Source: Gammaproteobacteria bacterium
GTDB lineage: Bacteria; Pseudomonadota; Gammaproteobacteria; SG8-11
DNA: 52,186 bases
Direction: 5' to 3'
Assembly: GCA_013151345.1 (NCBI GenBank)
Contig: JAADIM010000119.1
Location: 1-52,186 of the forward strand
Part shown: positions 31-51,704 of the stretch, piece after piece
How the letters are laid out: each line of letters begins with the position of its first letter
Numbering within the stretch: position 1 is the stretch's first letter
Notes under the pieces: generated by a model
The model's database searches: none
What the model saw: only the letters and a program-made list of their open reading frames with translations
Told to the model about the DNA's origin: nothing
Made by a program: the position numbers and the translations under genes

Positions 31-92
31 AAGTAACTGAAAATAATTTCTAATGCCTATTGACTCGAGAACGGCTCATATGTGTTATGTTC
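31..92 (-). repeat. attC-like site E (downstream of the 225-aa ORF); left boundary uncertain
   Basis: gttatgttc (84-92) overlaps the ORF stop codon and is the exact reverse complement of gaacataac (783-791) at the start of the same cassette. Candidate R' boxes are ttctaat (48-54) or aagtaac (31-37). Arm pairing is weak. Confidence 0.4.
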
Positions 93-762
93 CTGACGCC
101 CATGCCGCAGGGTACCGAATCTCCGACCGCGAACCAGACTCCACTTGCATGAGCGTTTCCACAAGGTCGTCGATGTAGAGAATCGCCTGAATCATCTCAA
201 CCAGCGCAAAGAGCACAACCGGGAGTCCGTCCTGATCATCCCCAAGGAACCCGAGAGCCGACTCAACCAACCTCTTCTTGTCCGCGTTCCGGTGGTATTC
301 GTACGAGTTCAACCAATCCATTACCGTATCAACGCTTAGCATATTGCGGTTAGAAAAGTTCAAGCCCACTTGGCGCTGTAAGGCCTTGAGCGTGAACTTC
401 TCGTTGAGCATGTCGAGGTGTTTGCGGAACGCGTGGTGTTCGAGTCTTCTCTTGAGGAGCTTCTTGATCTTGTGGAAGTAGCACTCTTCGTCTTTCAGAA
501 CGAAGGGGCGGATCCTTAGTAGCAGCGCACCGACTTCTTCAGTGTCGACGGGCTTCGCGTTTGATCTAAGAGGGCTGCCCACTTCCCACCTCATGGCTAT
601 CTGCCCACCGCGCTCATTCTGCACGAAATTGGTTGAACGCAGACGTTCCACCTCCCCGTGAAAACGTCGAAGCCGTTCCCACTCGTCATCGGGAACCTCA
701 TAGAAAATGGCCTCGCCGTGAGATCCGTCGTCGGTCAGGAGTTCGAAAGCTAGCAGGGCCAT
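85..762 (-). CDS. Hypothetical protein (cassette-borne, GC-rich orphan)
   Basis: 225-aa ORF bounded by attC-like sites. I recognise no family motif. A spot count of one 60-nt line gives about 55% G+C, against about 35% in the next cassette. Confidence 0.7.
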   Translation of the reverse strand: MALLAFELLTDDGSHGEAIFYEVPDDEWERLRRFHGEVERLRSTNFVQNERGGQIAMRWEVGSPLRSNAKPVDTEEVGALLLRIRPFVLKDEECYFHKIKKLLKRRLEHHAFRKHLDMLNEKFTLKALQRQVGLNFSNRNMLSVDTVMDWLNSYEYHRNADKKRLVESALGFLGDDQDGLPVVLFALVEMIQAILYIDDLVETLMQVESGSRSEIRYPAAWASGT

Positions 763-782: not shown

Positions 783-890
783 GAACATAACGCCTGAATT
801 GAGTTGCGTATTTTTTTTCGCCTCTTTTTGTGCGACCTTGCACAAAAAGAGGCGAAAAAAAATATGTCAACTCGAATTAATTGTTAGGCG
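783..890 (-). repeat. attC-like site A (downstream of the kinase/TPR cassette)
   Basis: Outer arms are acataacGCCtgaattgagttg (785-) and caactcGaattaattgttaggc (-889), with one unpaired G on the plus-strand 3' arm. The inner stem is near-perfect: ttttttttcgcctctttttgtgc / gcacaaaaagaggcgaaaaaaaa. On the minus strand the boxes read GCCTAAC ... GTTATGT. Confidence 0.75.
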
Positions 891-1022: not shown

Positions 1023-2531
1023 TCATTTTTTACTTATTTTAAATGTTTCTTTTAAATTGCCAACCAAATAATCTATACTGGGATCTTGGTGATCTTTAGC
1101 TACAAGCAAAAGATCTTTGATATTCTCTTCAGGATTAAACACATTAAGTTTCGCTTCTTCCAATAAATAATAATACGTAACCAAAAATAGCTTAAATCTA
1201 CTATTAACCTCTTTAGCTAACTCAATTGAGCGTTTATATCTCTCCCGACCACTAGTAATATTACCAATTCGGTAATCTAATAGCCCCTTAGTTGCCAGTA
1301 TCATTTGTTTATCAGCAGGATTAAGATTAATTTCAATAATTGAATCTAATTTTTCTTGTGCGCTAGAATAGTTCCCCAATTGTATTTCAGCAAATATTAA
1401 GTTGTTCAATAGGATTTTATTCTCTTGATTACATCTTAAACCATAGGAAGCGAAATTTTTTGATAATTTAAAGTCATTCATACAAATTGCAGCTACATAC
1501 GAGCCAAGAACTGCAGGACGACTAGAAAACGGTTGGTCATTTTGCCATTTTTCAGTACTGTTAACAGTACCTATCCAATCCTTCTTCTGATAACAAAGCA
1601 AAGCATTAGCTTCAAATGTATTTTGAAGATCTAATTTATTCAGAGGAAGTAATATTTTTTTATCTTTCCTATGCGCCCATTCTACTTGTGCCACACTATT
1701 TTCTGTAGGGTCGACCAAAGATTGATCAAATAATTTTTTAGCCTTTTTATGCTTACCAAAAGATAATTCAGTTGTTGCTACAGCTGAAGCAAGCTCGCTT
1801 ATGTGCCAAAAAGAGAATTTTTTATCTTCAATTATTTTAATTCCTATCTTAATATTCTTAGATGTCTTGCTATTTGCTTGCGCAGTCGCAATCTCCGCTG
1901 ATATTAACCAAGGGTCATATTTTAATGAACTAGCTTTTCTAATTGTATCTAATGCTCTAGCAGTATCGTCGTGATGAATAAACATTCTAACGGCAGACCT
2001 CAAAACAAACCTATTATTAGGCGCAAGATAAAGCGCATTACTCATACTTCTCTCTGCCTTAATTTTTTCACCCAATATTGTGTAAAAATACGCTAAATCA
2101 GCCCAGCCAATAGGATCTCGTGGAGTTTCACTAAGCCTTCTCTTTTGTTTTGAAATAATCGAAGCGTAACGAAACAAATCTTGGTGAGAATAATAATTTA
2201 GTTTACTTTGTAATAATTTTTCGGGTTCAGTAATAGAAACAATTAAGTCACTTAATAATTTATTTTCTGGGGCGTTTATTTTTAGAAACTTTATAACTTC
2301 CAAATATTCATTAGATTGTTCAGTTAGACACGCTGTAGCCAGAAGATCCACTGCATGAGCAATATCCTTATTACTCTGCCAATCATGATTTTTTTTGAGT
2401 AAGATTTCTTCTCGATCAAGAAATTGAATATTATTATTCAATGAAGCAAGCTGGTTACTTGATGTAGCAACATGAAACGCGCGCCATCTAGGAATAACTT
2501 GGCGATCAAGCTCATTAACTATGATACTCAA
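1023..2531 (-). CDS. TPR-like all-helical repeat protein, partner of the upstream kinase
   Basis: 502-aa ORF with a TTG start 22 nt after the kinase stop. It shows repeated helix-hairpin (TPR/Sel1-like) segments, e.g. WADLAYFYTILGEKIKAERSMSNALYLAPNN and LIFAEIQLGNYSSAQEKLDSIIEINLNPAD. No catalytic motif is visible. Confidence 0.7.
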   Translation of the reverse strand: MSIIVNELDRQVIPRWRAFHVATSSNQLASLNNNIQFLDREEILLKKNHDWQSNKDIAHAVDLLATACLTEQSNEYLEVIKFLKINAPENKLLSDLIVSITEPEKLLQSKLNYYSHQDLFRYASIISKQKRRLSETPRDPIGWADLAYFYTILGEKIKAERSMSNALYLAPNNRFVLRSAVRMFIHHDDTARALDTIRKASSLKYDPWLISAEIATAQANSKTSKNIKIGIKIIEDKKFSFWHISELASAVATTELSFGKHKKAKKLFDQSLVDPTENSVAQVEWAHRKDKKILLPLNKLDLQNTFEANALLCYQKKDWIGTVNSTEKWQNDQPFSSRPAVLGSYVAAICMNDFKLSKNFASYGLRCNQENKILLNNLIFAEIQLGNYSSAQEKLDSIIEINLNPADKQMILATKGLLDYRIGNITSGRERYKRSIELAKEVNSRFKLFLVTYYYLLEEAKLNVFNPEENIKDLLLVAKDHQDPSIDYLVGNLKETFKISKK

Positions 2532-2553
2532 TTATTTTAAGCCCCTGTATAAT

Positions 2554-3621
2554 CTACTTAGCAATCTTAATTTTATATTCTGCCTTTTTTGCTAATCGAT
2601 CAAATATATTACTATAACGCTCCACAGAATACCTTTGACCCTCACCTATTGATCGGTCTTTTGGATGCCCACGGAAACTAACGTCTGGTTCGCATAATTG
2701 CGATATAGCAGTAAGAAGATCTACACTATACTCCTCATAGTTCAGTTCAAAATAGTCTTTAAGGTCAATAATTAAATTAGAATATGCTTCTTTTAAATAA
2801 GGCAAAACATCTTCATATGTTCCACCCCACACAGATGGGTGGTATTGCTTATCCAGTTTTGTAACCAACAAAGAATTAATAGGCTGCTGTACAAATATGA
2901 AACAGATCAATCCACCCAGCATATATAAGTCTGAGCTTAATCTGCGTTTCTCCCAGTCAGGTGTCTCATAGTGGTAAAGTTTTTCTATTGGTGCATATCC
3001 AGGATCACCGGGGAAAATCTTTTCATCGTGAGGCCCTATATATCCTTTTAACGAGGATCGTCCAAAATCACATATTTTGGACGTGCGATTGTCGATAACA
3101 ACAATGTTAGATGGTTTGATATCCTGGTGTGCTATTTTTATGTAGTGCAGCTGCTTCAATCCTACAGCCACATTATGTAGTAGACAGAACTTCCAAGCAT
3201 CATCAACAACATCCCAGTTTTTTATATAGCGCCTGATATCGCCCTCACCCAGTTCAAATATTACATATTGAACATTGCTCAATAAATCTTTAGGGTCTAA
3301 TTGAATGTTATTCCACTCGATAAGACGTATCACCTTACTTAGCTTCTTTTCCTTACAAAGTTCAACTAGCTTTCTTTCAAATAAATGCTCATTTACAATT
3401 GGCTGAAGTGCCGACGCAGGGTCAGAATTTTCTAATGCTTTTGAATAATCCATAGCCTTCAGAAAGGCTTTTTCACCACTTATTTTTTCAACGACGTAGG
3501 AACATGAAAAATTAGATCCAGTTTGTTGTCCGGTCATACTTATCAATTGCGAAACTTTCCAACCATTATCTAAATTAAGACCGGTAAGCATCTCAGCAGG
3601 TTTAACAGTAGAATTGTTCAT
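2554..3621 (-). CDS. Hanks-type (eukaryotic-like) Ser/Thr protein kinase, soluble, no sensor domain
   Basis: 355-aa ORF with AFLKAM (VAIK lysine), catalytic loop HQDIKPSN, CDFG, and PGYAPIE (APE). No clear GxGxxG loop and no TM segment. Confidence 0.85.
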   Translation of the reverse strand: MNNSTVKPAEMLTGLNLDNGWKVSQLISMTGQQTGSNFSCSYVVEKISGEKAFLKAMDYSKALENSDPASALQPIVNEHLFERKLVELCKEKKLSKVIRLIEWNNIQLDPKDLLSNVQYVIFELGEGDIRRYIKNWDVVDDAWKFCLLHNVAVGLKQLHYIKIAHQDIKPSNIVVIDNRTSKICDFGRSSLKGYIGPHDEKIFPGDPGYAPIEKLYHYETPDWEKRRLSSDLYMLGGLICFIFVQQPINSLLVTKLDKQYHPSVWGGTYEDVLPYLKEAYSNLIIDLKDYFELNYEEYSVDLLTAISQLCEPDVSFRGHPKDRSIGEGQRYSVERYSNIFDRLAKKAEYKIKIAK

Positions 3622-3638
3622 AGACTTTTATTAGATTA

Positions 3639-3697
3639 CCCTAAAATAAATTTGTCAACTCGAACGCCTGGTTATAATTGACTCGCTATTTAGAATT
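3639..3697 (-). repeat. attC-like site B (downstream of the HigBA cassette), short and degenerate
   Basis: tttagaatt (3689-3697) is the reverse complement of 8 of the 9 bases aattctaac (4743-4751) that start this cassette. It has a GTCAA/TTGAC L-box-like stem and ccctaaaa (3639-3646) as a degenerate R'. It shares a 16-mer (15/16 identical), aat(a/t)tgtcaactcgaa, with site A. Confidence 0.45.
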
Positions 3698-4002
3698 GAT
3701 TACCAACAGGCAAACTCCCCTAGATTTTTTATTGCGTCACCGCAACGCATTGAACTGTTTTTTTTCGTTTACTACCAACTAAATACCCGCACGCGCTGAG
3801 TCTTTGATGGCTAATGAGTATTTCGTATCTATCAGTATAGTTCAAGATTTCAACTTTGAGATAGCTAGCTGAACAGAGATAACTTTTGAACAGAGACACA
3901 AAGAACAAAACAAAAAACTAGAAAATATAGCTGCATTCCAATTCATTTTTTTAAAATACAAATTACTAATTCTCAATAATCTCATAAAATTATAACGATG
4001 AG

Positions 4003-4356
4003 TTAAGCGGCGCGCGTCTTTTTGCGCGTCCGGCGAGCATCGCGAGCGAACTTTAACGTTTTGTTAGAATTGCTGCCTAATGCCCTCAATACTGCTTTTG
4101 GCTCTTTAGCAACAACGTTGAGCAAAACTAATGCTGGACCATGAGGCGTGCGATCACCGCGCTCCCAATGTCGCAAGGTACTTACGCTAATGCCAAATGC
4201 AGATGCAAATTCACTTTGAGACATTCCAACATTAGAGCGAACATTTTTAACATCGATAGGAGTAAACTCATGTACGATTGCTTTTAACTTTTTACCCTTA
4301 GCATGCTCTATCGCTTCACCAAGACCTTTTTTGATACTCTCATATGCATTACTCAT
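4003..4356 (-). CDS. HTH (XRE-family) antitoxin, HigA-like
   Basis: 117-aa ORF overlapping the toxin stop by 4 nt. The HTH segment is MSQSEFASAFGISVSTLRHWERGDRTP. It lies downstream of the toxin, which is the HigBA gene order. Confidence 0.8.
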   Translation of the reverse strand: MSNAYESIKKGLGEAIEHAKGKKLKAIVHEFTPIDVKNVRSNVGMSQSEFASAFGISVSTLRHWERGDRTPHGPALVLLNVVAKEPKAVLRALGSNSNKTLKFARDARRTRKKTRAA

Positions 4357-4694
4357 TTATTTCCACCTCCATAGCTCTTTACTAGTATTGCTGTCAGCTT
4401 TGCTAATTCCTTACCCTCTGCTTTTGTAATATTCGCTTTCTCGCCTTTCCCAAATACGGTGAGCAAAAATAAAGGTATCGTTTCATTATGATGATAATAA
4501 ATAACTCGTACACCTCCACTTTTACCCTTGCCTTGAGCTGACCATCGTAACTTCCTGATACCTCCTGTTCCTTGCATAATATCGCCAGCGGCTGGATGAG
4601 TCGCTAAGTAATTGATAATACTTTCTTTCTCATCCGTTGAGAGTAGTTTAGAAGATTTTCTTTGAAATTCTGGGAGTTCAACTACAGTTTGCAT
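4353..4694 (-). CDS. RelE/ParE-superfamily toxin, HigB-like
   Basis: 113-aa ORF. GGIRKLRW...GKSGGVRVIYYH...LFLLTVFGKGEKANI is typical of HigB/Gp49-like toxins. It precedes its antitoxin. Confidence 0.8.
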   Translation of the reverse strand: MQTVVELPEFQRKSSKLLSTDEKESIINYLATHPAAGDIMQGTGGIRKLRWSAQGKGKSGGVRVIYYHHNETIPLFLLTVFGKGEKANITKAEGKELAKLTAILVKSYGGGNK

Positions 4695-4703
4695 GAACTA
4701 TAG

Positions 4704-4722
4704 TGTAATCCAATGGATTACA
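4704..4722. promoter_or_regulatory. Perfect 9-1-9 palindrome, candidate HigA operator in the TA promoter region
   Basis: TGTAATCCA-A-TGGATTACA lies 10 nt upstream of the higB-like ATG. On the minus strand it is flanked by TTGATC and TACACT/TATAGT hexamers. Confidence 0.55.
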
Positions 4723-4742
4723 GTGATCAAGATGAAATTTAA

Positions 4743-4842
4743 AATTCTAACGCCTTGCTCAGCGGCAATTCAAAGCGGCACGTTTTTGCGAATGCAAAAC
4801 AAGTGCCGCTTTGAATTGTCCGCTGGAGCTATTTGTTAGCAT
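4743..4842 (-). repeat. attC-like site C (downstream of the DUF4209-like cassette)
   Basis: Left arm ttctaac-gccttgc-tcagcggcaattcaaagcggcac pairs with right arm gtgccgctttgaattgTccgctgGagc-tatttgttagca. Two unpaired bases (T, G) lie on the plus-strand 3' arm. gttagcat (4835-4842) is the reverse complement of atgctaac (6731-6738). Confidence 0.8.
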
Positions 4843-6715
4843 TTTTAGGTTCATGCTCATCCGCTGGTTTATTATCAACTTGCCCTGAATGTTTTGTATT
4901 CAAAAACGTGTTGAATACGATACGTAGGCCAAGCCACCATGCGTAAATAGAATAGGTTGATTGAGTTTCTTCGTAACCTAAAAGACCATGAGCCAGTTCA
5001 TTTCTTAAATTAGGGCCAAAAGAATTACAAAAAAGCGCTTTTATCTCAAAGGACAAATCTTCACCAAATATATCCTTGATTTCTGGTAGTTCTGCTAATG
5101 TGCTAAGCCCATTCTCATTTTCAATTCCATTTATGTCTAAATTTGTTGTTTTGACTCCATGCTGCTTCAAATGAAATCGAACTAAATTTTCAAGTTGTGG
5201 AATTAATATATGGAGCGCTGTTACAAAATCATTGTCATAACCAGCGAACAATGCCTTCGCTATCAATTGCTCACACTCTTGAGGTACGATTGGCGATTGC
5301 CTTGTTATCGAGTAAAAATCACCTTCTCGAAGCCGATGCTCTTGTCGCATTACCTCAAGCGCTGGCCAAATATTGCCCTGAACTACAATACCTAATTCCA
5401 TTGTGTAGTGTTTAACCATTTCTGGCCAAACAGTAGCTTCATCATCACCATTTCCTCCCAAATCTGCACCAGGACGCTTTGCTATTATCCTACCATCACG
5501 TGACATGTGAGTAGCAGAAAACATGACTTGCAGAGGATGTTCTCTCAACATTTTTTCAGAAAACTCTCTTACCTTTTTTACTCTTGCTCCTTGGTATACA
5601 TTGGCTAATGCAGCTAATGCATCAATAGCACTTTTTCCCCTAACTGAATTTCTAGAATTTTCAATAAATTCACTAATATCAATCCCTGGGGAAGTTATTT
5701 TTCCCATTTCTTCTAGTGACATTTCACCAGCAGAACTTAACTTTGTGCGAAGACTTGAAATTCGGCCATCAACATCATAATTACTTCTTTGAGATTTTGG
5801 GATGTTCCTGTACTTTTGGATAGCATTTTCATAAAATCCTGCAGCAACCATATTGCTAGGTGAATTTGAAGATTGTCTTGCTACGGCCTCCTTCTCCCAT
5901 CCTTCTGCTACTTTTACAGTTACCTCTGCACTTTTATCTTCGTTTCCTAATTTTCTATATACTTCCGCTGCTGCATCGAAATAATCTCTTGCTCTATGTA
6001 AATCGCCTGAGTCATCAAAATCAATTGCTAGTTGTTCTAGCTTCTGAGCTACACTGTCTTGTTTTTGGCGGCCTAGATTATGTTTTGAAAGTAGGTCAGA
6101 AACCCATAGAACTAAATATCCATCTTCATTAGTTAAATTTTCAACTACATCTAGCAATTCTTTTTCTATCTCTTGCAGCCGTTCTCCAGCACCAGCTTTA
6201 AGCATAAAACACAGCTGAATTGATCTGTCCCAACATTCTCGGCCATCTCTAACCCATAAATTAGTGCTAATTGGTAATCGGCGATAATTATCTATTGCTA
6301 ATAGTGCATGCTTTGGATCTTTTGGTTTCAGGAGCAACCATGATATATCAGCAATGCGAGCACAAAGACGAGGGTCGCTAATTTCCTCCGCTATCTGAGC
6401 AAAAAGAGAAATCTCATTTTCCTGAAAGTCTTCTGGCAATGCGGATCTCTTTCCATCCATTACCATATATGGTTTAAAAGGTTCATTGAGGCTTGAAGGT
6501 CTAAGCATCATTGAACAAGCATCTGCGAGAATCCATAGAATCTTTCCTTCTGCTAATTTTTCATTTTCGATAGCTTGCCTAGCAAAAGAAGAAAGAGATT
6601 GCCATATAGAGGAATAGTCTTCTCGATTCGCATCAGCTATTGCTGCTAGCCAATCGCTATTTCGAAAATCATCTATAGAGATGTCTATGCCTTCTGGATA
6701 TCTCTCCATTATCAA
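4829..6715 (-). CDS. Large protein with a C-terminal RNxxxHG motif (DUF4209-like, HEPN-type Rx4H)
   Basis: 628-aa ORF. The track start is TTG at 6715; ATG at 6709 lies 10 nt after AAGGAG. The C-terminal sequence FGPNLRNELAHGLL is encoded at 4985-5005. The N-terminal two-thirds is helical with no motif I recognise. Confidence 0.75.
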   Translation of the reverse strand: MIMERYPEGIDISIDDFRNSDWLAAIADANREDYSSIWQSLSSFARQAIENEKLAEGKILWILADACSMMLRPSSLNEPFKPYMVMDGKRSALPEDFQENEISLFAQIAEEISDPRLCARIADISWLLLKPKDPKHALLAIDNYRRLPISTNLWVRDGRECWDRSIQLCFMLKAGAGERLQEIEKELLDVVENLTNEDGYLVLWVSDLLSKHNLGRQKQDSVAQKLEQLAIDFDDSGDLHRARDYFDAAAEVYRKLGNEDKSAEVTVKVAEGWEKEAVARQSSNSPSNMVAAGFYENAIQKYRNIPKSQRSNYDVDGRISSLRTKLSSAGEMSLEEMGKITSPGIDISEFIENSRNSVRGKSAIDALAALANVYQGARVKKVREFSEKMLREHPLQVMFSATHMSRDGRIIAKRPGADLGGNGDDEATVWPEMVKHYTMELGIVVQGNIWPALEVMRQEHRLREGDFYSITRQSPIVPQECEQLIAKALFAGYDNDFVTALHILIPQLENLVRFHLKQHGVKTTNLDINGIENENGLSTLAELPEIKDIFGEDLSFEIKALFCNSFGPNLRNELAHGLLGYEETQSTYSIYAWWLGLRIVFNTFLNTKHSGQVDNKPADEHEPKNANK

Positions 6716-6730
6716 AAGACTCCTTTTTTT

Positions 6731-6807
6731 ATGCTAACATCCCGCATAACTAGCGTGTGCATTTTATGCGTCAAATTTGAAGCGGTTGTTATAGGTTATT
6801 GTTATTT
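6731..6807 (-). repeat. attC-like site D (upstream boundary of the DUF4209-like cassette), degenerate
   Basis: atgctaac (6731-6738) is complementary to the inverse core of site C. It has an internal 7-bp stem cgcataa/ttatgcg and three tandem GTTAT boxes at 6788-6807, the last overlapping the esterase stop codon. The spacer is strongly asymmetric. Confidence 0.45.
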
Positions 6808-7509
6808 CAGACTCGTTATTTTTTGCTCGATGGCCTGGGTGATTTTTGATTTCATATCGGTGAATATACCATGGTGGCCTCCATCAAATTCAGAAAACAT
6901 CACATTAACACCCTTTACCTGCAAAATATTTACTGCATTCTTGCCTCCGCTGATCGAAATTACGCTGTCATTTTTGCCATGAAAGGCAATAACTTTAGCG
7001 CCTGGTCTAAATGTTGCATCACCAAGATGCTCATTAGATAGCTGCCCAGATACTGGAAAAATATAAGAATAACTATTGCCATATTTTGCGGCCTGATAAT
7101 AGGCCATCATACCCCCACCAGAGAAACCCAGTAGAATCGGTTTCCGTACAGTCGGGTATTTTTGCGCAAGTAACTCGATTGCCTCATTTACCGCTTTTCC
7201 ATATAGAGCAAAATCAGACGCGCTCCATGGCCAGGCACTGCCACTGCCATGGGAAATAGGGCCTTTAAGTAAAATAATGCGTGCGGGAACGTTTAGCTGA
7301 TCCAAGGCAGAATTATAGAAATTCTTAGCCGTATCGCCATTACCATGGAGCGCAACTAGCATAGGAAGATAATCCGTTCGACGACTATTCCCAGAATATT
7401 CTACAATATAACTAAAGCTGACATCGTTAGTGGGTACACTAATAGTCGGATCTTTAAACCACCATTGTGCGAGCCCCAATACAAAAATAATTAGAATAAT
7501 TTTTTTCAC
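6802..7509 (-). CDS. Secreted alpha/beta-hydrolase (carboxylesterase/phospholipase family)
   Basis: 235-aa ORF with an N-terminal signal-like segment, the GFSGGG nucleophile elbow (GxSxG), and a conserved His near the C-terminus (GGHHG). Confidence 0.75.
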   Translation of the reverse strand: MKKIILIIFVLGLAQWWFKDPTISVPTNDVSFSYIVEYSGNSRRTDYLPMLVALHGNGDTAKNFYNSALDQLNVPARIILLKGPISHGSGSAWPWSASDFALYGKAVNEAIELLAQKYPTVRKPILLGFSGGGMMAYYQAAKYGNSYSYIFPVSGQLSNEHLGDATFRPGAKVIAFHGKNDSVISISGGKNAVNILQVKGVNVMFSEFDGGHHGIFTDMKSKITQAIEQKITSLK

Positions 7510-7534
7510 TTTTACCTACTATTGTTTTCTAATA

Positions 7535-7918
7535 CTACTTAGGCCCTGCCTCGTCGCCCTTATTTAGTCTATCTGATATTTTTTTACAGCTCATTAAAGT
7601 CTCACTTAATTGCTGTGGTGTCATGAGATTCAGTTTATTTCTAAACTCTCCAAGCTCGTTGATGTAAGCAGGGTGATTTTCTATATCCTGAATAATAGAA
7701 TTATGTTTTTCCCTCCAGCGGGCATAGACCTCCATAGTATTTAAATAATATTCTGGTATATGCAAATCACATGCTTTTTTTATAATTAGTATATGATTTA
7801 TTTTATTCATCTCTTCGTCACTATATGTCCCGTTATCTTTAGTTTCTCCAAATATGACTTGAGGTAATATAAATAATAAAATACATATAATTAAATATTG
7901 TAATAACTTCATTTGCAA
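7535..7918 (-). CDS. Hypothetical secreted protein
   Basis: 127-aa ORF with a hydrophobic N-terminal signal-like segment. No family recognised. Confidence 0.55.
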   Translation of the reverse strand: MQMKLLQYLIICILLFILPQVIFGETKDNGTYSDEEMNKINHILIIKKACDLHIPEYYLNTMEVYARWREKHNSIIQDIENHPAYINELGEFRNKLNLMTPQQLSETLMSCKKISDRLNKGDEAGPK

Positions 7919-8062
7919 GTTCCTTGTATTTTATCAAGCGCCTAAGCTTCAGTTTTCGCGACATTATATGTCTCATGCTCTGCATCATCGACAGGCAAAA
8001 GTGGCATGTATTTTTGCCTCGAAATAACCGCGCTGCTTTTGACTGTTCGCTGGATACATTGG

Positions 8063-9004
8063 TTAAGTCTTTTTCGCTGTTATTGCTGTTTTCTCTTGGC
8101 TATGGTTTTTCTGTAGAATAACGGTTGCAATTGATGAAATTAAAATACCTGGGGCTACTGCCATAGGAATTGATACGCCATCGATCAACAGCAATAGCAC
8201 TGCTACTAATGCTGGAGTCAAGTAAATATATGCATTTACACGACTAGGGCCAAGCACGACAGTAGTTTTTTGGTAGATATAAACAGTCGCAAGCGTTGCA
8301 CCTATAACTAAGTAAGCCATGTAATATACTAACTCGCCTTGTAACAAATCCCATTGAAGCGGCTGGCCTGAAAAAAGTAGTGCCAGTGCCATCCAAAGTG
8401 AACCACCTACAAGAGTGCAAAAAACTAGCACAACCATTTCATCATTTCGATATAACAATTTCATGGTGATAGAGTAACAACACATCGAAAATGTGCCAAC
8501 CATGAATATCAAGTCGCCTTTATTCAAGGAAAACGACAAGAGCAGATTAAACTGACCATTGAAAATCACCCAAGAAGTTCCCGCTGCTCCCAGTAAATAA
8601 ACAGCAATCTGTTTGATAGCCATACCTTCGCCGAAGATAAGCATGCATAGAAGAGCTGTGATCAATGGCACTAGTGTATATAAAGCGCCTGTATTTAACG
8701 CTGTCGTTGTATTCAGCGACTCAAAAAAACAAATGAAAAATACAGAAAAAAACAGACTTATTATCATGGCTCTTGGTAGAGTCGTTAATACTTCTCTTCT
8801 CCACCGTGGATTTGAAAATATAATAGGCGATAATATTAATCCAGCACCTATGAAACGAAGTAATGTTAGAGAAATTGGATTAATAATACCGGCAAGTTTT
8901 TCTGAAGCCAAAAATGACCCTGCCACAAGAATTGTTGCGAGTATAACTAATAGATGAGATTTCACATTTTGAACTTTCAACATCACTCCCTTTATGACAT
9001 GCAA
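8063..9004 (-). CDS. EamA/DMT-family transporter
   Basis: 313-aa ORF with about 10 TM segments arranged as two EamA-like halves. Confidence 0.75.
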   Translation of the reverse strand: MHVIKGVMLKVQNVKSHLLVILATILVAGSFLASEKLAGIINPISLTLLRFIGAGLILSPIIFSNPRWRREVLTTLPRAMIISLFFSVFFICFFESLNTTTALNTGALYTLVPLITALLCMLIFGEGMAIKQIAVYLLGAAGTSWVIFNGQFNLLLSFSLNKGDLIFMVGTFSMCCYSITMKLLYRNDEMVVLVFCTLVGGSLWMALALLFSGQPLQWDLLQGELVYYMAYLVIGATLATVYIYQKTTVVLGPSRVNAYIYLTPALVAVLLLLIDGVSIPMAVAPGILISSIATVILQKNHSQEKTAITAKKT

Positions 9005-13140: not shown

Positions 13141-13182
13141 ACCTATATATGGTATTTAGTGGTATAAATGAGGTGCGTTCAT

Positions 13183-13422
13183 ATGGCTAAAAATACAAGT
13201 ATTACACTTGGAGATCACTTCGATGAGTTTATTTCCGACCGAATTAAAAATGGACGATATGGTTCTGCCAGTGAGGTTGTTCGAGCTGGATTGCGCCTTC
13301 TTGAAACCACAGAAACTAAGCTTGAGATGCTCCGTGCCATGCTTGCCGAAGGTGAAAATAGTGGATTTGCAGATTACTCTTACGATAATTTGATTAAAGA
13401 ACTTGATAATGAGTCCCATTAA
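13183..13422 (+). CDS. parD: ParD-type (RHH) antitoxin
   Basis: MAKNTSITLGDHFDEFI...GRYGSASEVVRAGLRLLE. ATG at 13183 lies 7 nt after AGGTG (the ORF track starts earlier, at 13168). It overlaps parE by 1 nt (TAATG). Confidence 0.85.
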   Translation: MAKNTSITLGDHFDEFISDRIKNGRYGSASEVVRAGLRLLETTETKLEMLRAMLAEGENSGFADYSYDNLIKELDNESH

Positions 13423-13739
13423 TGCCCGCCTATAAGGTCACAAACAAAGCTAAAGCAGACCTTATCGCAATTGGACGGTATACAACAAAAAAATGGGGAG
13501 TAGCACAAAGGAACGACTACCTTAAACAATTAGATAATTGTTTTTCACAAATCTCCGAAAATCCAAAGCTCGGTGTTACTAGTGATCTTATCAAAAAAGA
13601 CTATCGTAAATTTCCGCAAGGCAGCCACCTCATTTTCTACAAACAAAACCTAAACGGAATCATTGAGATAATCAGAGTATTACATAAGACCATGGACATC
13701 GAATCTAATATTGATAAAACAGTCACGGTAGGAACGTAA
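13422..13739 (+). CDS. parE: ParE-type toxin (RelE/ParE superfamily)
   Basis: 105-aa ORF. The sequence DLIAIGRYTTKKWGVAQRNDYL...YRKFPQGSHLIFYK...IEIIRVLH is typical of ParE. Confidence 0.85.
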   Translation: MPAYKVTNKAKADLIAIGRYTTKKWGVAQRNDYLKQLDNCFSQISENPKLGVTSDLIKKDYRKFPQGSHLIFYKQNLNGIIEIIRVLHKTMDIESNIDKTVTVGT

Positions 13740-13740
13740 G

Positions 13741-14215
13741 TCGCCCAACGCCCCCCGCACAGATCCCCGCATGAAGTTTTCCCTCACGGGGCTCCTCGGT
13801 CACACTCGCTTTCGCAGTCAGCAAAGACTTCATCGGCTCACCACCACACCTTGTTTAATGCTGGCTTCACTCGACATTTTGGTATCGGCAAAGCCAAGAA
13901 GGTTAACGTGCACTTCAGTCGCTCCCAGGTATAACTACGTCGTCCACTTCGTCGATTTAACCACCTATAAAGTAGTTTCACCACATATCGTTTGACGGCA
14001 TAAAGTCCAGCCAGATTGCCAATCACTCCAAAGTAGTTGTAATGCCCTCGCAACTTATCCACCAAGCTGGCCAGCAATAATGAGATCTTCATATGCCGGT
14101 TCTCCTTGATGTATTCCTTTAAGTTGTTCTTCGCTGTTTGCAGTCTTTCTCTTCCTGTTCGTCGGAACAATCTCGGCTTTTCTTTCTTGTCCAATTCCCA
14201 ATGGAATTCAAAACT
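13741..14215 (-). mobile_element. 5'-truncated group II intron remnant (maturase C-terminus plus domain V/VI region)
   Basis: It carries a maturase-like ORF tail. About 44 nt downstream, on the minus strand, GAGCCCCGTGAGGGAAAACTTCATGCGGGGATC (plus 13762-13794) folds like domain V: an 8-bp lower stem with one mismatch, a 2-nt bulge, and an upper stem capped by a GAAA-type loop. No RT domains and no domains I-III are present. Confidence 0.7.
13838..14212 (-). pseudogene. Group II intron-encoded protein fragment (thumb/X and C-terminal part only)
   Basis: FEFHW...KLRGHYNYFGVIGN...RWLNRRSGRRSYTWERL...LPIPK matches the conserved C-terminal maturase region of bacterial intron-encoded proteins. The upstream RT motifs are absent. 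Confidence 0.75.
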
Positions 14216-14239
14216 CAAAAAATAGAAATAGGGGAGGTA

Positions 14240-14325
14240 GGGACACCGATGACTTAAGGACTTAACGACACTGAGAAGCAATTATTCTACAACTTTGTTT
14301 AAGTCCTTAAGTCCTCGGCGTCCCC
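14240..14325. repeat. Long inverted repeat (27-bp arms, 25/27 paired, 30-nt loop)
   Basis: gggacaccgatgacttaaggacttaac (14240-14266) pairs with gtttaagtccttaagtcctcggcgtccc (14297-14324). It sits exactly where the intron remnant loses homology. Confidence 0.8.
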
Positions 14326-15133: not shown

Positions 15134-15149
15134 TTATTTAACCTAAACT

Positions 15150-15212
15150 CATCATAGGCTTAACCGAGCACATAATAGGCTTAACCGAACACATAATAGG
15201 TTTAACCTAACA
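15150..15212. repeat. Tandem repeat, ~21-bp unit, 3-4 copies, filling an intergenic spacer
   Basis: cataggcttaaccgagca / cataataggcttaaccgaaca / cataataggtttaacctaaca. It starts next to the stop codon of the DUF350 gene. Confidence 0.9.
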
Positions 15213-15214
15213 CA

Positions 15215-16108
15215 TCATCCAAACAATCCCGCGATCAAGAAACCCACTGCGATATAAACAGCCGCTTCAATTGCACCGATGGCGACGTTGCCTTGATTAT
15301 CGACTTCCTCGGCAACGTTAATGCCTGGCAAAACTGCCTTACGGATAACAATAGCCAACACTGTTAAGATTAAGAACATCAATACGGCGACGACGGACCA
15401 AGCAGCCAGGCTGGCGATCAATTGTGTGTCTCCGTAGACCACAACACCGGATGCACCGGTCACGGCCAAAGCAATACCAACTCGATAGCCAGCAAAACGC
15501 AGGGCTAACGCGGTATTACCTTCCTCAATTTGTTTTTGTAACCCTGTATTGCCATGATGCCGGGCATAGACATGGCGACGGTAGGCCGTGGCCGCGACCA
15601 TGATGGCTTGCGATACCAAGAAACCCACCAGCACAAACAATAAGCCGATAAAAGAATTGCTATCTACCCATACCATTACCGCACGTAGAATAATGGCAGT
15701 GGCGATCATATTGCCTGCATCCACCAGTGCCGCAGCGATATTGCCTCGCATGATTTCCTTATGAATGCTGATATCCGGCAAAGAAATATGATCAAACACT
15801 TTGCGTGTAACAGCCATCAGCACCAAGCCGACACCACCGTAGGCCAACATGATAAAAGCTTCGCTCGCGGGGTTATTCGCAGCTTCACCGGATACCGCAC
15901 CCATGAGCATGACAGCGACCGCGATGGCTGCACCTGCGATGGAAATGCCAAATGCGTGGTTATCCCGCTCGGCTAGTTCAGCCTGGGCGGAAACATTACC
16001 GACAACACCCGCCAATTTACGCATACTCGCCAGAATGACCGCAATGATAAGAAAATCCACGGCATAATAAGCCGCCAAGCTGGGGTCAATTCCGATTAAT
16101 TCATTCAT
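15215..16108 (-). CDS. DUF350-repeat membrane protein (YjfL-like)
   Basis: 297-aa ORF made of several repeated two-TM modules rich in A/G/V. It sits in a yjf-like neighbourhood. Confidence 0.6.
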   Translation of the reverse strand: MNELIGIDPSLAAYYAVDFLIIAVILASMRKLAGVVGNVSAQAELAERDNHAFGISIAGAAIAVAVMLMGAVSGEAANNPASEAFIMLAYGGVGLVLMAVTRKVFDHISLPDISIHKEIMRGNIAAALVDAGNMIATAIILRAVMVWVDSNSFIGLLFVLVGFLVSQAIMVAATAYRRHVYARHHGNTGLQKQIEEGNTALALRFAGYRVGIALAVTGASGVVVYGDTQLIASLAAWSVVAVLMFLILTVLAIVIRKAVLPGINVAEEVDNQGNVAIGAIEAAVYIAVGFLIAGLFG

Positions 16109-28421: not shown

Positions 28422-29336
28422 TTGATGGCAACACGTCACTTTCTTACACTCACTGATTTTAGCCAAAAAGAGCTTCACAAACTCATCATACGTGCTATTG
28501 AGCTAAAAAAAATGCGCCAACAAGGTGAAAAATATGAACCTTTAAAAAACAAAACGCTCGGCATGGTATTTGAAAAATCTTCCACTAGAACACGCGTATC
28601 GTTTGAAGCTGCAATGACACACTTTGGCGGTCATGCCATTTTTCTCTCTCCACGAGATACGCAATTAGGCCGCGGAGAACCCATAGAAGATACCGCACGT
28701 GTGCTTTCACGTATGGTGGACATAATCATGATCCGCACCTATGAACATGAAAAATTGGAGCGTTTCGCGCAACACTCAATAGTACCGGTCATAAATGCAT
28801 TGACAGACAAATTCCATCCGTGTCAATTACTTGCCGATGTGCAAACATATGTTGAAAAGAGAGGCAATATAAAGGGCAAAAAAGTCGCCTGGGTCAGTGA
28901 TGGCAACAACATGTGCCACTCATATATAAACGCTGCCAAGCTATTTGAATTTGATTTAAAAATTGCCTGTCCAGAAGGTCATTTTCCGGACAGAGACATA
29001 TTGGCATCGGTAAAAGAGAATTGTGAAATTGTTGGCTCACCAGAATTAGCCGTCGAAAATGCAGACCTGGTGGTGACAGATGTTTGGGCGAGTATGGGAC
29101 AGGAACAAGAACAGGCCGCGCGTTTAAAAACATTTAGTGGCTACCAGATCACACCCGAACTCATGGCACTCGCCAAGCCCGATGCACTGTTTATGCATTG
29201 TTTACCGGCGCATCGTGGTGAAGAAGTTTCTGCGACAGTCATTGATGGGCCGCAAAGTGCAGTGTGGGATGAAGCTGAAAACCGTTTGCATGCGCAAAAA
29301 GCACTACTTGAGTTTTTGCTAACCAATGTTTGCTGA
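28422..29336 (+). CDS. argF: Ornithine carbamoyltransferase
   Basis: 304-aa ORF with the motifs [24 protein letters not shown] and [10 protein letters not shown]. Confidence 0.9.
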
Positions 29337-33301: not shown

Positions 33302-34213
33302 TTACGTTTTGTTAACCAGGGCAACATACAATTCTTCAAGGCGATTCGACTTATTTCTCATACTCAATATATTTATCTTGTGACGCGTCAACATCTCGAA
33401 CAACAAATTCAAACTTTGTCCTTTAATGACTTCGGCTTCTATTGTATTTTCATCGACACAACGCAGCGCGTAATCTTCAGAAGATGGCAAACGCTCCAAA
33501 TTACCATCGACATACAATACGAAGGTTTCTTTATTTAATTTCGCTAACAATGCCTTCATTGATGTATTTTCTATGATCTCACCGTCATTAATTATTGCAA
33601 TGTTGTTACACAACATTTCTGCCTCTTCGAGATAATGCGTAGTTAATATAATAGTGACGCCATCAGCATTGATGTCTCTAAGAAATTGCCACATCGTGCG
33701 GCGCAATTCTATATCCACGCCTGCTGTTGGTTCATCTAATATTAATAAATCCGGCTGGTGAACCAGTGCTCTGGCGATCATTAAGCGGCGTTTCATACCA
33801 CCAGACAGCTCTTTGGGAATTTGCCGCCGTTTGTCCCACAATTCAAGTTTTTTTAAATAATATTCTGCCCGCTGCCTGGCTACATTACCACTAATACCAT
33901 AAAAGCCAGCTTGGTTAATCAGGATCTCTTCTATGGGTTCAAAAACATTAAAATTATATTCTTGTGGCACTAAACCAATATGTGATTTAGCCGTCTGAAT
34001 ATCGACATCAATGTTATTGTTAAAAACTTCTACCGTACCACTTGTTTTGTTTACCAACGAACATATTATGCCGATGGTGGTCGACTTACCCGCACCGTTT
34101 GGACCTAACAACGCAAAAAAATCACCTTTGTTGACCTCAAGGCTAATACCTTTTAAAGCAACATGTCCGCCATGATATGTTTTATGTAAATTGTCTATAA
34201 AAAGTGCGTTCAT
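33302..34213 (-). CDS. ABC transporter ATP-binding protein (YadG-like)
   Basis: 303-aa ORF with GPNGAGKST, LSGGMKRRLMIARAL and LILDEPTAGVD. Confidence 0.85.
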   Translation of the reverse strand: MNALFIDNLHKTYHGGHVALKGISLEVNKGDFFALLGPNGAGKSTTIGIICSLVNKTSGTVEVFNNNIDVDIQTAKSHIGLVPQEYNFNVFEPIEEILINQAGFYGISGNVARQRAEYYLKKLELWDKRRQIPKELSGGMKRRLMIARALVHQPDLLILDEPTAGVDIELRRTMWQFLRDINADGVTIILTTHYLEEAEMLCNNIAIINDGEIIENTSMKALLAKLNKETFVLYVDGNLERLPSSEDYALRCVDENTIEAEVIKGQSLNLLFEMLTRHKINILSMRNKSNRLEELYVALVNKT

Positions 34214-40235: not shown

Positions 40236-40260
40236 TTAAGCCTTACTCCTTAATTTTTGC

Positions 40261-40338
40261 AAAAAGTCGTCACAAAAAAGTCTTTACAAAAAGCTCTCAC
40301 AAAAAGCTTTAAAAAAGTCTTCACAAAAAAATCTTCAA
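40261..40338. repeat. Tandem repeat, 12-14-bp unit, ~6 copies (caaaaag(t/c)(c/t)tt.a) upstream of rpsM
   Basis: caaaaagtcgtca / caaaaaagtcttta / caaaaagctctca / caaaaagcttta / aaaaagtcttca / caaaaaaatcttca. Confidence 0.85.
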
Positions 40339-45643: not shown

Positions 45644-45698
45644 TAATAAAGAGTTAATAAAGAGTTAATAAAGAGTTAATAAAGAGCTAATATTAAGC
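45644..45698. repeat. Tandem repeat, 11-bp unit, 4-5 copies (taataaagagt) in the rplX-rplE spacer
   Basis: taataaagagt occurs three times, followed by taataaagagc and taatattaagc. Confidence 0.92.
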
Positions 45699-51612: not shown

Positions 51613-51704
51613 TCTAATAAAAAGTTCTAATAAAAAGTTCTAATAAAAAGTTCTAAATAAAAAGTTCTAATAAATTGTCTAATTAATAATTTCTAAATAA
51701 AATG
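51613..51704. repeat. Tandem repeat, 13-bp unit, at least 5 copies (tctaataaaaagt), filling the rpsJ-rplC spacer
   Basis: tctaataaaaagt occurs three times, followed by tctaaataaaaagt, tctaataaattgt and further decayed copies. The repeat ends 5 nt from the rpsJ stop codon. Confidence 0.92.

Follow-up and report, generated by a model that had tools for sequence, protein, structure and literature searches.

A divergent, attC-associated member of the candidate kinase-TPR phage defence family PDC-M71 in a gammaproteobacterial contig

Phage defences that rely on kinases are few, and little is understood of how they sense infection. Near one end of a 52,186-nucleotide contig from a Gammaproteobacteria bacterium (JAADIM010000119.1; the whole stretch is called the window below), the gene for a Hanks-type Ser/Thr kinase is followed on the same strand by the gene for a tetratricopeptide repeat (TPR) protein, and the question that this locus raises is whether the two genes form a defence module and, if so, of what kind. 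The initial annotation, made from the sequence alone, had proposed an undescribed module for defence or abortive infection. Its profile matches place the locus in the catalogued candidate family PDC-M71, as a divergent member and not as a new system. Our best explanation, to which we give slightly better than even chances, is that the locus is a translationally coupled PDC-M71 operon acting as a TPR-regulated, abortive-infection anti-phage kinase pair. Defence as the function of the pair, taken by itself, we consider somewhat more probable than that.

The two open reading frames (ORFs) and the spacer between them are as follows.

Positions 2554..3621, minus strand: PDC-M71A kinase ORF, 355 amino acids (aa), ATG start
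Positions 2532..2553, minus strand: intergenic spacer of 22 nucleotides (nt), with an AGGGG Shine-Dalgarno-like motif 10 nt ahead of the TTG
Positions 1023..2531, minus strand: PDC-M71B TPR ORF, 502 aa, TTG start

The initial annotation was exact in its ORF coordinates, lengths, 22-nt gap and TTG start, and its estimate of about one-third G+C for the cassette agrees with the 34.4% measured for positions 1023-3621, where the window as a whole has 41.9%. The TTG is credible as a start because the AGGGG motif lies 10 nt upstream and because the same TTG, the 22-nt spacer and the N-terminus MS.IV.ELDRQVIPRWR all recur in the nearest relative of the pair, a locus that we call L097. An exact-sequence look-up in the contig index returned no identical kinase sequence. 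The 381-nt spacer ahead of the kinase gene held no σ70-like promoter on the coding strand, where matches were fewer than in shuffled sequence.

An obligately linked two-gene unit

Both proteins match PDC-M71 models of PADLOC-DB v2 at full length. The kinase matches PDLC04780 (PDC-M71A) with an E-value of 4.1e-113, residues 1-351 aligning to positions 1-349 of a 352-position profile, and the TPR protein matches PDLC04781 (PDC-M71B) with an E-value of 1.4e-128, residues 1-497 aligning to positions 1-509 of 515; the TPR protein also matches PDLC04782 (E 3.9e-62). The PDC-M71 layout is likewise present in the window, with A followed by B, adjacent and on the same strand. PDC-M71 is cassette CAS_00219 (FAM_02024>>FAM_01393), entered in the supplement of its source as "Assign as candidate PDC-M71", and was picked through its embedding in BREX, DISARM or type I restriction-modification (RM) loci (Payne et al. 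2024, bioRxiv 10.1101/2024.01.29.577857). The pair is therefore not undescribed, as had been claimed, and a named two-gene arrangement of kinase and TPR protein, of which the initial annotation knew none, was already listed. The annotation had also said that membership of the kinase in a named system would count against its proposal; PDC-M71 is named, but only as a computational candidate. A validated kinase-TPR defence system under any name was not found in the literature, including the papers on DefensePredictor, on chromosomal-integron defence and on the bacterial Ser/Thr kinase atlas. Identity to the closest full-length relative is 49% for the kinase and 61% for the TPR protein.

A scan of one genome per species gave at least 410 loci with relatives of the kinase, and we examined the best 80 for the partner gene. 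These 80 loci span Acidobacteriota, Planctomycetota, Pseudomonadota, Bacteroidota, Actinomycetota, Chloroflexota, Gemmatimonadota, Clostridia, Spirochaetia and other groups, and in 78 of the 80 species genomes the next gene downstream, on the same strand, encodes a TPR homologue. The two exceptions are a contig that ends 262 nt past the kinase gene and a remnant with only the first ~25 TPR codons. The TPR gene also follows the kinase gene in all 14 of the IMG/VR viral contigs that carry the kinase, so the co-occurrence that the initial annotation had proposed to check, and the functional pairing that it had hypothesised, are borne out almost without exception. When we measured the distance from the kinase stop to the TPR start in the 53 other loci where the TPR start could be placed, it was −4 nt in 24 and −1 nt in 5, with a maximum of 25 nt; such overlaps and short gaps imply translational coupling. 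The Arthrobacter plasmid pA19BH1 carries the pair with a 4-nt overlap. Across 75 loci the pairwise identities of the kinase correlate with those of the TPR protein (r = 0.77, a value reached in 0 of 999 permutations of a Mantel test), and therefore the two genes diverge and move as a unit. There is no conserved third gene, the largest cluster of flanking genes covering 5 of the 78 loci. Altogether, these findings show that the pair is an obligately linked, co-inherited and horizontally mobile two-gene unit.

Tight gene order, the frequent 4-nt overlap and co-inheritance are also what an addiction module of the toxin-antitoxin kind would display, in which the kinase would be a growth-arresting toxin and the TPR protein its antitoxin, stabilising the cassette array or a mobile element. 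The pair occurs on plasmids, on prophage-like contigs and in integrase-linked islands, a HigBA module sits next door in the attC region of the window, and kinase toxins exist, such as the HipA-type DS-6. On the other hand, a partner of 500 aa is far above the size of typical antitoxins, is encoded downstream of the kinase and lacks a DNA-binding domain, and the kinase has no similarity to HipA. We consider this explanation distinctly unlikely, and it overlaps with the defence explanation in any case, since many toxin-antitoxin modules serve phage defence.

Kinase, TPR partner and the function of the pair

The kinase was described in the initial annotation as a standalone protein, and Pfam indeed detects no domain in it besides Pkinase (residues 40-247, E 4e-13). 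The motifs that had been read from the sequence are all present (AFLK55AM, H165-Q-D-I-K-P-S-N172, D185-F-G and A210-P-I-E213) and conserved among 25 aligned homologues, whose identity to the window protein is 36-47%. Invariant across these homologues are K55, E82, H165-Q-D167, K169, N172, D185-x-G187, A210 and E213 of APxE, and R317, so that the full catalytic set of a Hanks-type kinase is accounted for, namely the β3 Lys, the αC Glu, the catalytic Asp, the Lys and Asn of the catalytic loop, DFG and APE. With all catalytic residues present and invariant, the window kinase is probably active. Its catalytic loop reads HQD in place of HRD, which makes it a non-RD kinase; kinases of this type usually need no activation-loop phosphorylation. 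A Gly-rich loop had been reported as unrecognisable, and the family alignment does reveal one, degenerate relative to the canonical GxGxxG, at residues 34-39, TGGxFS in the family and TGSNFS in the window copy, with an AlphaFold2 confidence score (pLDDT) below 50 at residues 34-36. Past the Pfam domain, the kinase continues for ~95 aa as a helical C-terminal extension that is conserved in the family and in which the motifs LPYL, QLCxPDPxxRGHP and YSLERY occur. As modelled by AlphaFold2 (pLDDT 90), the whole protein has a protein-kinase fold and matches generic protein-kinase structures only; TM-scores reach ~0.74 if the shorter PDB target is the reference for normalisation and are ~0.5-0.6 with the query as reference. 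Searches of the PDB by profile and by fold with the kinase likewise returned generic kinases and no specific relative.

The TPR partner is modelled by AlphaFold2 as an all-helical solenoid of 28 helices (pLDDT 87), and sequence and fold searches with it returned generic TPR matches only (Tom70, OGT, APC/C subunits and IFITs), with no catalytic fold found in any of these searches, including those of the PDB. This agrees with the all-helical, TPR-like protein without catalytic motif that had been described, and the profile and fold searches on predicted structures that the initial annotation had suggested thus yielded generic kinase and TPR folds for the two proteins. Within the TPR family, the alignment revealed an invariant N-terminal peptide, R10-x-V-I-P14-R-W-R17, and further invariant or near-invariant motifs (NRFVLRSAxR, DPWLLAAEIA, PTENSxAQ, DQPFSSRP, LLNNLAF and ATxGLLxFRxGNxxxGRxLY). 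By these motifs, the family is conserved well beyond the needs of a simple scaffold. It is also large, comprising 1,858 clusters at 50% identity in an exhaustive search (E ≤ 1e-30). Nearly all of the 150 best matches listed are ~500 aa long, and therefore there is no kinase fusion among them.

To see the company that the pair keeps elsewhere, we surveyed the two nearest positions on each side in 62 loci, taking a random 95 of the 126 ORFs of at least 230 aa. RM genes were represented by a type III RM methyltransferase and by ResIII and EcoR124-type restriction subunits, and other defence genes by mad3 (5), OLD/AriA/GajA/HEC-01-type ATPases (3-4), AbiEii (3), capP (3), CBASS cyclases (2) and PtuA (2); tyrosine recombinases were found 5 times. 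By our own count, made without a matched control, defence-type genes account for at least one in five of the neighbours sampled. At ~70% nucleotide identity, the window pair's nearest relative lies in such an island.

L097, JGI 3300038408 contig Ga0436464_0002356, positions 2715-8932: tyrosine recombinase, kinase, TPR protein, Shedu (SduA_C), DUF3644

L097 has no attC sites and no flank homology to the window, and therefore the module moves independently of integron machinery. Together, the variable, defence-rich and mobile-element-associated neighbourhoods fit the defence or abortive-infection module that the initial annotation had proposed.

The same survey bears on two further explanations. 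The pair could be a cellular signalling module unconnected with phage, in which a soluble Hanks kinase and a TPR scaffold serve host physiology in the manner of PknG. Five families of bacterial Ser/Thr kinases, PknG among them, do have TPRs alongside their kinase domains, fused in the case of PknG, and some neighbours of the pair are housekeeping genes. We give this explanation a slim chance, given that the distribution is patchy over many phyla, that flanks are not conserved, that the pair occurs on viral contigs and plasmids and is embedded in RM, BREX or DISARM operons, that the window copy has low G+C and a cassette-type context, and that PknB and other curated kinase families are matched only weakly and in part. 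Slimmer still is the chance that the pair is a weapon of mobile elements, by which a prophage or plasmid would disarm host defences or exclude competitors through broad phosphorylation. Its occurrence on 14 IMG/VR viral contigs and 3 plasmids would suit such a role, and a phage (T7) kinase is reported to disarm defences by phosphorylation. Yet many neighbours in the 80 loci, which were not sorted into chromosome, plasmid and prophage, are host-type defence genes, and the IMG/VR contigs are probably prophages, where defence genes that benefit the host are common. No likeness to the T7 kinase turned up in our searches, none of which was a comparison aimed at that kinase.

Returning to the anti-phage kinase pair as the preferred explanation, we propose the following specific mechanism, to which we give less than even chances. 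The TPR protein would bind the kinase stoichiometrically and keep it silent, with contacts made by the N-terminal RxVIPRWR peptide, by the C-terminal helical extension of the kinase, or by both. Since the peptide contains no phospho-acceptor residue, it is a candidate pseudosubstrate or docking element, and the conserved kinase extension is a candidate docking surface. A phage-derived protein or peptide lodged in the TPR groove would relieve the restraint, and the released kinase would broadly phosphorylate host proteins, phage proteins or both, stopping the infection as Stk2 and PD-T4-6 do. Sensing would thereby have moved to a separate repeat protein, by analogy with the TPR-sensor STAND (Avs) proteins. 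Whether this amounts to a new mechanistic type, in which a non-RD kinase is held by a TPR receptor via RxVIPRWR and freed by a phage protein for phosphorylation-driven abortive infection, is doubtful. If it is true, PDC-M71 would be a split receptor-kinase, reminiscent of the non-RD pattern-recognition kinases of plant and animal innate immunity.

Several points weigh against the anti-phage explanation. Binding between the two proteins, toxicity of the kinase and its phosphorylation of host or phage targets are presumed in this model, the pseudosubstrate and sensor roles are speculation drawn from conservation patterns, and the degenerate Gly-rich loop (TGSNFS) leaves room for reduced ATP binding. 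The flank survey is qualitative and has no matched control, and housekeeping neighbours are present as well, including ribonucleotide reductase, a tRNA synthetase and ordinary metabolic genes. Payne et al. call their 145 phage defence candidates, PDC-M71 among them, untested, and candidates derived from embedding associate less with other defence systems than do the ones derived from enrichment (bioRxiv 10.1101/2024.01.29.577857). The name "PDC-M71" occurs in no main text of the searchable literature.

PDC-M71 is nevertheless compact and very widespread, and it is easy to dissect because its putative sensor and effector are separate polypeptides. Overall, the observations in the initial annotation were largely correct and its interpretation was reasonable, and what falls away is the novelty, the pair having been catalogued already.

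The attC region and the rest of the window

The initial annotation had the two genes making up one attC-bounded cassette on their own. Four sites bear on that claim.

Positions 788..886, minus strand: canonical attC 3′ of the TPR gene; R'' GCCTAAC, R' GTTATGT; unpaired spacers, L boxes and extrahelical bases in the left arm
Positions 3643..3676, minus strand: half-attC, copying the 788-886 attC in R''-core, spacer and L'' arm; right arm lacking
Positions 3993..4066, minus strand: weak attC-like site over the higA 3′ end; R'' TCTAAC, R' GTTATAA, 5-nt spacers, GTTAA(A)G/CTTAAC L box
Positions 4748..4838, minus strand: canonical attC after the PDC-S39 gene; R'' GCTAAC, R' GTTAGAA, two extrahelical bases in the left arm

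The 3′ side of the claim stands, the attC at 788-886 folding as single-stranded DNA with −36 kcal/mol and a z-score of −10.3. The 5′ side offers only the weak site and the half-attC. The former, at 3993-4066, folds no better than shuffled sequence (z −0.26) and is a possible 5′ boundary of the kinase-TPR cassette. The latter lies 22 nt upstream of the kinase start codon and shares 20 of 22 bases with positions 855-876, and its region does not fold (z −0.57). Because it copies the left arm of the attC (855-886), a direct repeat of that arm flanks the pair; a non-canonical insertion could have left the half-attC as a scar, or it could be an attC that was truncated. Going upstream from the pair, the first strong attC is the one at 4748-4838 (−35.7 kcal/mol, z −9.1), and the two strong attCs bracket HigBA together with the pair. 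Depending on whether the site at 3993-4066 works, the mobilisable unit is the pair by itself or the pair together with HigBA.

We found no other convincing attC in the 52 kb, no intI, and no tyrosine recombinase among the ~33 larger ORFs scanned against Pfam across the contig; ORFs outside that scan (for example 28422-29336 and 33302-34213) lie among ABC-transporter and ribosomal/rpoA-type clusters. As far as the contig shows, the attC cluster looks like a CALIN (cluster of attC sites lacking an integron integrase), and at position 1 the array extends past the contig end. Cassette character is limited to the first ~7 kb of the contig. The larger annotated ORFs elsewhere are metabolic, transport and housekeeping genes (such as SecY, asparagine synthase and hydantoinase B), and the gene order around SecY resembles a ribosomal-protein and rpoA cluster, where the small ORFs lie outside the scan.

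Both defence-related neighbours that the initial annotation had named were recovered. The HigBA module (positions 4003-4694, minus strand) consists by Pfam of a RelE/HigB-like toxin of 113 aa (PF06296) and an HTH_3/MqsA-like, helix-turn-helix (HTH) antitoxin of 117 aa, with the genes overlapping by 4 nt and the toxin first, as in HigBA; a σ70-like promoter match falls inside the upstream attC (4773-4744). What had been called a HEPN-like protein is encoded at positions 4829-6715 on the minus strand and has 628 aa, with the Pfam domains DUF7380 and DUF4209 and an R-N-E-L-A-H motif (Rx4H, HEPN-like) near its C-terminus. It matches the single-gene candidate PDC-S39 over its full length (E 5e-248) and, by this match, is a second defence candidate, in the adjacent cassette. 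With PDC-M71, PDC-S39 and HigBA, the window also adds an example of candidate genes for defence gathered at attC sites outside a classical integron. An ORF of 225 aa (85-762, minus strand) occupies the cassette that follows downstream of the 788-886 attC; its G+C of 54% is far above that of its surroundings, and no Pfam, PADLOC or NCBIfam match was found for it.

Two features lie further into the window. At 13168-13739 on the plus strand, genes of 84 and 105 aa overlap by one base and have the look of a ParD/ParE-type toxin-antitoxin pair. Beside them (13838-14281, minus strand), a fragment of 147 aa contains the domain of a group II intron maturase (GIIM, E 2.6e-6). Toxin-antitoxin pairs and group II intron maturases are often found in or near chromosomal cassette arrays; no attC was found near 13168-14281. 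In addition, short tandem repeats form 27 arrays in the window; their periods are 10-26 nt, the copies number 2-7, and the repeat unit is peculiar to each array (examples are 51613-51702, 45644-45692, 40260-40337, 15138-15215 and 3858-3896). Intergenic spacers, which are only 15% of the sequence, contain or overlap 22 of the 27, and most arrays lie directly upstream of gene starts, even among the small genes around SecY.

Comparison with known systems

Precedents for the role proposed here include Stk2 of Staphylococcus and PD-T4-6 of Escherichia coli, cytoplasmic Hanks-type kinases for which a role as defence effectors has been proposed or shown. The window kinase was rejected as a member of either, its match to Stk2 covering residues 116-250 only (E 6.7e-8) and its best PD-T4-6 model residues 116-188 only (E 1.5e-11), in each case a stretch around the catalytic loop. 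Both are single-gene systems, whereas the window kinase has an obligate TPR partner and a C-terminal extension of its own. Other kinases were rejected as well. Mad6 of MADS matched over the catalytic core only (E 1.9e-14; NCBIfam MAD6 at 26.5 bits against a cut-off of 460) and MkoA of Mokosh matched part of the catalytic core (E 8.5e-12); both are large multidomain proteins in multi-gene systems, unlike the standalone window kinase. PknB, lanthionine synthetase and Kdo/WaaP kinases gave partial matches far below curated cut-offs. Membership among HipA-type kinase toxin-antitoxin systems was rejected on the lack of any Pfam or NCBIfam HipA match and on a partner that is a TPR protein without an HTH.

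On the partner's side, BcTir/Tpr and the TPR sensors of Avs/STAND systems likewise pair an effector with a repeat solenoid that is the likely recognition site, and IFIT proteins are among the weak TPR matches of the window protein. The relation of the window protein to BcTir/Tpr, Avs and IFIT is through generic TPR repeats only; the window effector is a kinase rather than a TIR, NADase or nuclease, and there is no STAND NTPase.

In its surroundings, the locus resembles the integron cassettes and CALINs with defence genes described by Darracq et al. (2024, bioRxiv 10.1101/2024.07.02.601686), which share with the window canonical attCs, an interspersed toxin-antitoxin pair and a single orientation, and where no kinase, TPR or PDC system is mentioned. 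Unlike a classical integron, the window has two strong attCs only, no intI in 52 kb and a weak 5′ boundary.

The closest likeness of all is to PDC-M71 itself, with which the window pair shares gene order, strand, adjacency and full-length profile matches. Catalogue entries of PDC-M71 are embedded in an RM, BREX or DISARM operon, whereas the window copy is divergent and attC-associated. A divergent member of PDC-M71 in such an attC-associated context is what is new here, and it would not surprise a specialist. For the family as a whole, near-absolute linkage of the two genes and the invariant catalytic and partner motifs lift PDC-M71 from a catalogue entry to a well-founded candidate for experiments.

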